A stretch of DNA of 64,000 nucleotides. Source: a plasmid. Position 1 is the stretch's first letter. Every line of letters begins with the position of its first letter. The stretch lies in NCBI RefSeq assembly GCF_053078305.1, contig NZ_CP166875.1. One strand, written 5' to 3'. The notes beneath the pieces were generated by a model. The model ran no database searches and was not told where the DNA came from. It was given only the letters and a program-made list of their open reading frames with translations. Below are positions 21,790 to 22,634 of the stretch, piece by piece. The translations under genes and the position numbers were made by a program.

Positions 21790-22634
21790 AAATACCTCTG
21801 CTTCAGAATTTATTTTTTAATAATATCACAAATTATAAATTAATAAAGATTCTCATCTGATAAATTTGTTTAATAATCGGCCTCTAAAAAATATATTGTA
21901 TCCACTTTGTTGTGGTTCTGACAGAAGTAAATTAATTTGAAGTAAATAAAGCAAAATATCAGAAGAATATATCGGGGCGCACAGTCTATCTCTGCCTTTG
22001 TTTCATGGGATGTTCTTTGTATATTTTACTTGCTGTTTACTTGCTGTTTACTTGCTGTTTAAGTATGTATATAAGGAGTGCATTCATTATGCCAATGAAG
22101 CTTGTAAAGAAGAATCCCCGGAGCAAAGTGATTCGGGAGCTTAGCTGTGAGCAAGAGATGGCAGTAAAGGCGGTCTGCGGACTGAAAAAACAGCAACTAC
22201 GGCACTACATGCCCTGGCCAATGATCTTCTCCGGGAAATGCGTGAGTATGATGCATGGTTACAGTGTGACTGTATTCCGGGAGATTCGCCGACCATGAAT
22301 TTTGCTGCTCTTAAAAACAACACGGGAACTTTTTATCTGTCCAGTTTGGATATAGATAATTATTGTACTAATAAGGGAAGCCAACACCAGCCGACAGACC
22401 AGACGCCGCTGCTCATTCAGTGAAACGCAGATAAACAGTAAAGCAAATCCAGACTCCAGTACGGAATAATCGTCAGCGGTATTAACGGGATCCGGTGCTC
22501 CCAGTCAAACACCAGGCTGCTGATGTTTTCTCTCCCGGCGGTAAACTGATTCGTCATGCCATAAGTAAGAAAGAAGAATGGGGCCAGCACCATTAGCCAG
22601 CCGATTCCCTGAATAATCACCGCACGCCGCGTTG

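Follow-up and report, generated by a model that had tools for sequence, protein, structure and literature searches.

The described systems closest to the tandem array reported here are the short-repeat slippage hot spots, such as the CTGG x3 site in lacI of Escherichia coli, which gains or loses one unit. The units of such hot spots measure 1-6 bp, stand head-to-tail as exact copies and are gained whole; a short direct repeat flanks the single-copy progenitor, and sequences that are otherwise identical differ in their number of copies. Tandem homology of 15 nt or more makes the gain and loss of units by replication slippage much easier. Contingency repeats, like the TA repeats between the -35 and -10 elements of Haemophilus hif and the TAAA repeats upstream of Neisseria nadA, lie in promoters or leaders and differ in copy number among close relatives, and they comprise many short units that switch functional genes at high frequency. 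Plasmid iterons and operator arrays are direct repeats in intergenic regions; iterons measure 17-22 bp and keep their number across relatives; they are located at an origin or the rep promoter and have a cognate Rep. The direct repeat (T/G)GTTTA-N5-(T/G)GTTTA constitutes the PhoP-box consensus of the Enterobacterales (PMC2322996). The gene neighbourhood of our array is known from pCol1B9, where yafA and yagA, both described as of unknown function, flank fopA, formerly named yafB (Gerovac et al. 2020, PMC7491321).

We analysed a stretch of plasmid DNA of 64,000 nucleotides, referred to below, as a whole, as the window. Its matches to Rfam comprise CopA (5784-5874), FinP together with the traJ 5'UTR (58753-58862) and two sok RNAs, and the window is therefore an IncF-type mosaic plasmid. 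The nearest complete relative is the E. coli plasmid pFHI_NMBU_11_02, with 99.4% identity over 61% of window positions 10000-34000. The array region itself is the fopA(yafB)-yagA intergenic region of I-complex plasmids, carried inside this mosaic IncF plasmid: a fopA-like gene lies divergently to the left, and its right-hand neighbour bears the annotation yagA in IncI1 plasmids. The two neighbours of the array are an RNA-binding protein of the FinO/ProQ family and a domain-less remnant of YagA; a DNA-binding protein with a link to the array is not among them. The cargo directly to the right of the yagA remnant is a minus-strand lipid-modifying gene cluster (22417-25950) that contains: a 73-aa ORF, a bifunctional alpha/beta-hydrolase/SAM-methyltransferase (586 aa), a lysophospholipid acyltransferase and a phosphatidate cytidylyltransferase. 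The same cluster is found in pFHI_NMBU_11_02 and, at 95% identity, on a plasmid of Enterobacter asburiae. The coordinates of the features around the array are collected in Table 1.

Table 1. Features of the fopA-yagA intergenic region and its borders in the window.
Feature	Position	Strand	Basis
fopA(yafB)-like FinO/ProQ-family gene, 193 aa, divergent	21208..21789	-	Pfam PF04352, E=9.7e-12; name from PMC7491321
Best promoter-like element for yagA near the array, predicted: TTGTTT (21998-22003), 16 nt, TATATT (22020-22025)	21998..22025	+	own PWM scan
Weak sigma-70-like match TAAACA-16-TAAAAT toward the fopA-like gene	22023..22050	-	consensus scan, 9/12
Tandem array: 3 full 11-bp units TTTACTTGCTG plus partial TTTA	22025..22061	.	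Tandem Repeats Finder (TRF), sequence, alignments to one-copy relatives, unit counts in 22 related loci
Three TGTTTA hexamers in 11-bp phasing (22034-39, 22045-50, 22056-61), resemblance to PhoP box only	22034..22061	+	pattern search
Shine-Dalgarno AAGGAG (22073-78) and ATG (22089-91) of the yagA remnant	22073..22091	+	sequence; conserved in IncI1, IncI-gamma/K and L007
yagA pseudogene remnant	22089..22347	+	three-frame translation against YagA of IncI1 plasmid L003; alignment to relatives

An earlier note on this DNA had described an 11-bp repeat in three copies at 22026-22058, preceding an ORF that starts at 22089, and both the coordinates and the description proved correct on reading the sequence (TTACTTGCTGT x3 exactly) and by TRF. 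The full periodic stretch is slightly longer, with period 11, 3.4 copies, 100% matches, no indels and a score of 74, so that it can be read as units of TTTACTTGCTG at 22025-35, 22036-46 and 22047-57, followed by the partial TTTA at 22058-61. Its copies are exact and head-to-tail, as in slippage-generated variable-number repeats, and 26 consecutive bases of the array repeat the preceding 11, which is far beyond chance. The array ends 28 nt 5' of the ATG and, when aligned to relatives with one copy, represents an insertion of 22 bp relative to the one-unit ancestral state. Other tandem repeats occur in the window as well: the top TRF score belongs to an exact 29-bp tandem duplication (TTTCCCGCCGCGCAGATCCGGTTTCCGGC x2, 33615-33673), and exact CTGCTA (x6.8), exact AATAACAATC (x2.9) and clustered, imperfect G/T-rich repeats of 11-13 bp occupy 49027-49067, 28377-28405 and 41390-41541.

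The ORF downstream, which the earlier note took for a small one, does open at the ATG at 22089 and encodes 69 aa (beginning MPMKLVKKNPRSK), but it is the 5' remnant of the 448-aa yagA rather than a small gene. Frame 0 of the remnant matches amino acids 1-34 of YagA and frame +2 matches amino acids ~37-86; the frameshift follows codon 34 and stems from a 1-nt deletion at the A-run 22185-22190. Homology to yagA ends at 22347, where unrelated cargo begins, near codon 86 of 448, leaving less than 20% of the gene length, and the RefSeq annotation of the equivalent stretch in pFHI_NMBU_11_02 reads "frameshifted; incomplete". The yagA of the window is a pseudogene, both frameshifted and truncated. 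In three related loci of the same haplotype (L015, L017 and L018; see below) the remnant is cut earlier still, at a junction equivalent to window position ~22116, and in L015 a Tn3-family transposase gene (1012 aa) adjoins the shortened remnant; these earlier cuts show that the erosion of the locus continues. Intact YagA (448 aa; positions 3944-5290 of the IncI1 plasmid L003) is without a Pfam domain. Its homologues, including those of L007, L008 and L009, reach down to 22-31% identity and occur on plasmids of Enterobacter, Serratia, Lelliottia, Rhodanobacter and Rhizobium; in the Serratia and Enterobacter plasmids examined they adjoin partition genes. Proteins of the YagA kind are widespread on plasmids.

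We then counted the units in related sequences. In the relatives sampled outside the haplotype of the window the locus carries a single unit throughout. Four relatives were aligned, namely pFHI_NMBU_11_02, a canonical IncI1 plasmid whose yagA is intact and two plasmids with a yagA that breaks off at codon ~13, and each has one unit (TTTACTTGCTG or TTTACTTACTG, followed by TTTA). One unit is the state of all relatives on other backbones (L001, L002 and L004, IncI1 L003, IncI-gamma/K1 L010 and IncK2/Z L011) and of every sampled plasmid with an intact yagA. In the more distant yagA homologue L007 (57% identity) the unit is not conserved. More than 1100 PLSDB plasmids possess the locus, as do about 1000 complete E. 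coli genomes, and the three-unit form is absent from all 1114 PLSDB records that contain the 86-nt block. A megablast search with a junction-only query that covers both unit variants, and for which a 28-nt seed is possible only at two or more units, was run on 72,556 plasmids and on 5,426 complete E. coli genomes and did not find an array of at least two units in either set. In a local control the same query detected two- and three-unit targets and left a one-unit target undetected, and the low-complexity filter is therefore not the cause of the negative search. An exact scan of one genome per species for at least two units likewise returned no match. The two metagenome matches (L005 and L006) were rejected as coincidental arrays of TTTACTTACTG with unrelated flanks.

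The picture is different on the haplotype of the window, which can be recognized by the fopA-like gene. Relative to four relatives, this gene carries a nonsense change (A at 21210, where the relatives have G; Q194*) by which the last 9 codons are lost (193 versus 202 aa). The exact 193-aa allele was looked up in a large assembly collection and retrieved from 24 contigs, the 69-aa yagA remnant being retrieved from many more. The change falls within 21208-21213 on the minus strand, and the presence of the exact truncated protein in at least 24 contigs of public assemblies therefore marks a circulating allele and not a one-off error. Among the fetched loci with this allele, which derive from separate NCBI assemblies, an ENA metagenome and two SRA runs, four contain one unit (L015, L017, L018 and L024) and five contain two (L012, L013, L014, L016 and L019); three units were found in the window only. 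The eight fetched loci without the allele (L001, L020-L023 and L025-L027) all have one unit and mostly encode the 202-aa FopA. Over the core 20300-22116 the sequences with the 193-aa allele share one haplotype and differ by private SNPs only. The copy-number variation is thus confined to one haplotype, and the A21210 nonsense allele serves as the marker of the haplotype that saw the expansion. The earlier note had proposed to look for copy-number variation in relatives, and the repeat turned out not to be invariant. The occurrence of one, two and three units on one haplotype implies a stepwise expansion, 1 -> 2 -> 3, on one plasmid lineage; an expansion private to this plasmid is ruled out by the two-unit alleles in draft assemblies and metagenomes.

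These data lead us to read the array, with a probability of roughly 0.8, as a recent and neutral expansion by replication slippage of a single-copy ancestral fopA-yagA intergenic sequence, fronting a dead gene. The ancestral one-unit sequence, TTTACTTGCTG-TTTA, contains a 4-nt direct repeat (TTTA...TTTA) 11 nt apart, and only 4 positions of the 274-nt intergenic region, the unit among them, show at least 4 nt of microhomology at 11-nt spacing. A first slip between the two copies of TTTA would have duplicated the 11-bp unit; at least 15 nt of perfect tandem homology would then have been present, so that a second slip could easily have added the third unit. The expansion would have arisen, and been tolerated, after the nonsense mutation and after the decay of yagA. 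Exact head-to-tail copies, the gain of whole units, a progenitor flanked by a short direct repeat and copy-number differences between otherwise identical sequences are all shared with the short-repeat slippage hot spots, from which the array differs in its unit of 11 bp rather than 1-6 bp, in its 1-3 copies, and in its non-coding position before a pseudogene, with no phenotype to score. A footprint or target-site duplication of an IS element was rejected by reasoning alone, since there are three copies without an intervening element and IS elements rarely leave footprints.

A second part of the earlier proposal, that the repeat is a slippage-prone promoter element, held with respect to the slippage, for which the one-, two- and three-unit forms on a nearly SNP-free haplotype and the TTTA microhomology both speak. 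As to the promoter part, the array starts right after the best-conserved -10-like hexamer of yagA; neither the consensus nor the PWM scan yielded a sigma-70 candidate in the region that was better than shuffled sequence. The best candidate for yagA, TTGTTT-16-TATATT, has a PWM score of 7.9 that is unchanged by the copy number and lies below the median best score of shuffles (9.4), and it was not reported by the stricter consensus scan. Since no candidate of either scan beats the shuffles, the promoter is placed here mainly because of conservation: CTGTATATTTT, the ribosome-binding site and the ATG are all conserved in L007. With a -10 element at this position, the predicted transcription start, ~7 nt 3' of it, probably falls inside the first unit, and the array would stand at the 5' end of the leader. 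In that position the additional 22 nt would most likely lengthen the leader of a junk transcript and do nothing useful. Folds of the leader RNA with one, two and three units were no different from those of shuffles (z -0.6 to +0.5), and no Rfam match was found in the array region.

The length of the unit has a further consequence for reading frames, as 11 is not a multiple of 3 and each added unit shifts the frame. An upstream ATG at 22005 is in frame with the remnant ORF only at three units, giving a 97-aa product (22005-22298) with a hydrophobic N-terminal extension (MGCSLYILLAVYLLFTCCL). This ATG is without a ribosome-binding site and lies 5' of the predicted -10, and a look-up of the 97-aa read-through ORF for other three-unit contigs found no such product on record.

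The expansion was seen in one sublineage only and went by two steps, and selection could also be the source of such a pattern. We considered whether the expansion is an adaptive cis-regulatory change, by which sites for PhoP or for another direct-repeat regulator of the OmpR/PhoB family, or a promoter on the minus strand, were formed. Such a change would have altered the transcription of the fopA-like RNA-chaperone gene, or would have shut down a strong yagA promoter that drives a junk peptide. We hold this to be unlikely, although several observations point in its direction. The array reads TGTTTA-cttgc-TGTTTA-cttgc-TGTTTA and thus contains two overlapping exact matches to the PhoP-box consensus, next to a degenerate ATTTTA at 22023-28; a pattern search found only these two exact matches in the 64 kb, where 0.02 are expected, and only 1.2% of all 11-mers in the window, or 2.7% of the AT-rich ones, would yield a box when repeated. 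The minus-strand match toward the fopA-like gene has its 16-nt spacing only at two or more units, and the additional 22 bp correspond to about two helical turns, by which upstream sites keep their helical face. SPI-2-inducing conditions activate PhoPQ. The FopA protein has been reported to be up in these conditions (PMC7491321).

Against an adaptive change it can be brought forward that the match is automatic on repeating a unit that contains GTTTA, and that it was recognized post hoc, several direct-repeat regulators having been considered. The ancestral aTTTTA-N5-TGTTTA matches the consensus in 10 of 12 positions, and 28 such sites occur in the window versus 17 expected, so that the ancestral resemblance is at chance level; the homologue L007 is without the motif. 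Hexamer and 11-bp phasing agree exactly with the PhoP box, twice, whereas the array lies 3' of the likely -10 of yagA and more than 230 nt from the start codon of the fopA-like gene, an arrangement in which we recognized no standard activating geometry. The promoter-like matches score below the shuffle median, which for TAAACA-16-TAAAAT holds over its whole PWM range (5.9-7.6), and the consensus scan found 4 sites like this minus-strand 9/12 match where 2.5 are expected. A CpxR box was tried and rejected, the minus strand reading GTAAA-N6-GTAAA, one base off the consensus GTAAA-N5-GTAAA. The literature searched yielded no expression data and nothing relevant on a PhoP dependence of yagA or fopA, and the text of the supplement of Colgan 2016 makes no mention of yagA/yafB of pCol1B9.

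In its most specific form the adaptive explanation would state that slippage made, in two steps, a phased triple TGTTTA that acts as a high-affinity site for PhoP or a related regulator and rewires the fopA-like gene to Mg2+/envelope signalling. We regard this as distinctly improbable. If true, a regulator-binding site would have been caught being born by slippage, with the intermediates of one, two and three units all extant.

An artefact of sequencing or assembly in the source record, affecting the third unit or the whole expansion, would agree with the fact that the three-unit form occurs in no other record searched. We consider it very improbable, because at least five samples, assembled separately and drawn from three sources, have the two-unit form, which means that expansion at this site is biologically real, and because assemblers do not typically err by an exact gain of 11 bp.

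An iterated operator or iteron, as the earlier note suggested, that is, a designed protein-binding array controlling the downstream gene, would fit three phased exact repeats adjoining a promoter-like element and a ribosome-binding site and, like known plasmid arrays, lying in a plasmid intergenic region, yet it is extremely improbable: such an array is expected wherever the gene is functional, whereas all relatives sampled outside the haplotype, every plasmid with an intact yagA among them, have a single unit, two or more units occur in none of the more than 1100 records with the block, multi-unit alleles are found only where yagA is dead, the unit is not conserved in more distant homologues, and neither the length, the conserved number, the location nor the cognate Rep of iterons applies to the array, the replication controls of the window (CopA) being elsewhere.

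Slippage expansion in front of a decayed gene also sets the array apart from the contingency repeats, with which it shares the promoter/leader location and a copy number that differs among close relatives. Contingency repeats control functional genes, whereas yagA is frameshifted and truncated here; they consist of numerous short units with a high switching frequency, whereas the array has one to three units before a dead gene. A single unit is fixed in more than 1100 relatives, no wide copy-number polymorphism of the contingency kind was seen across the 72,556 plasmids and 5,426 E. coli genomes, and the best promoter candidate is unaltered by the copy number.

Taken by kind, the array is an ordinary slippage-generated variable tandem repeat that heads the probable leader of a dead gene; repeats of this kind are well known, and this particular one has not been described before. 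The negative part of the outcome is useful: the repeat belongs neither to the iterons nor to the operator arrays or contingency loci, and what looked like a "small ORF" is a fragment of a pseudogene. Its biological weight is small: it provides a clean example of a microhomology-seeded duplication that turned variable once the gene was no longer under selection, and the number of units (one, two or three) could serve as a fine-scale typing marker for one plasmid haplotype.
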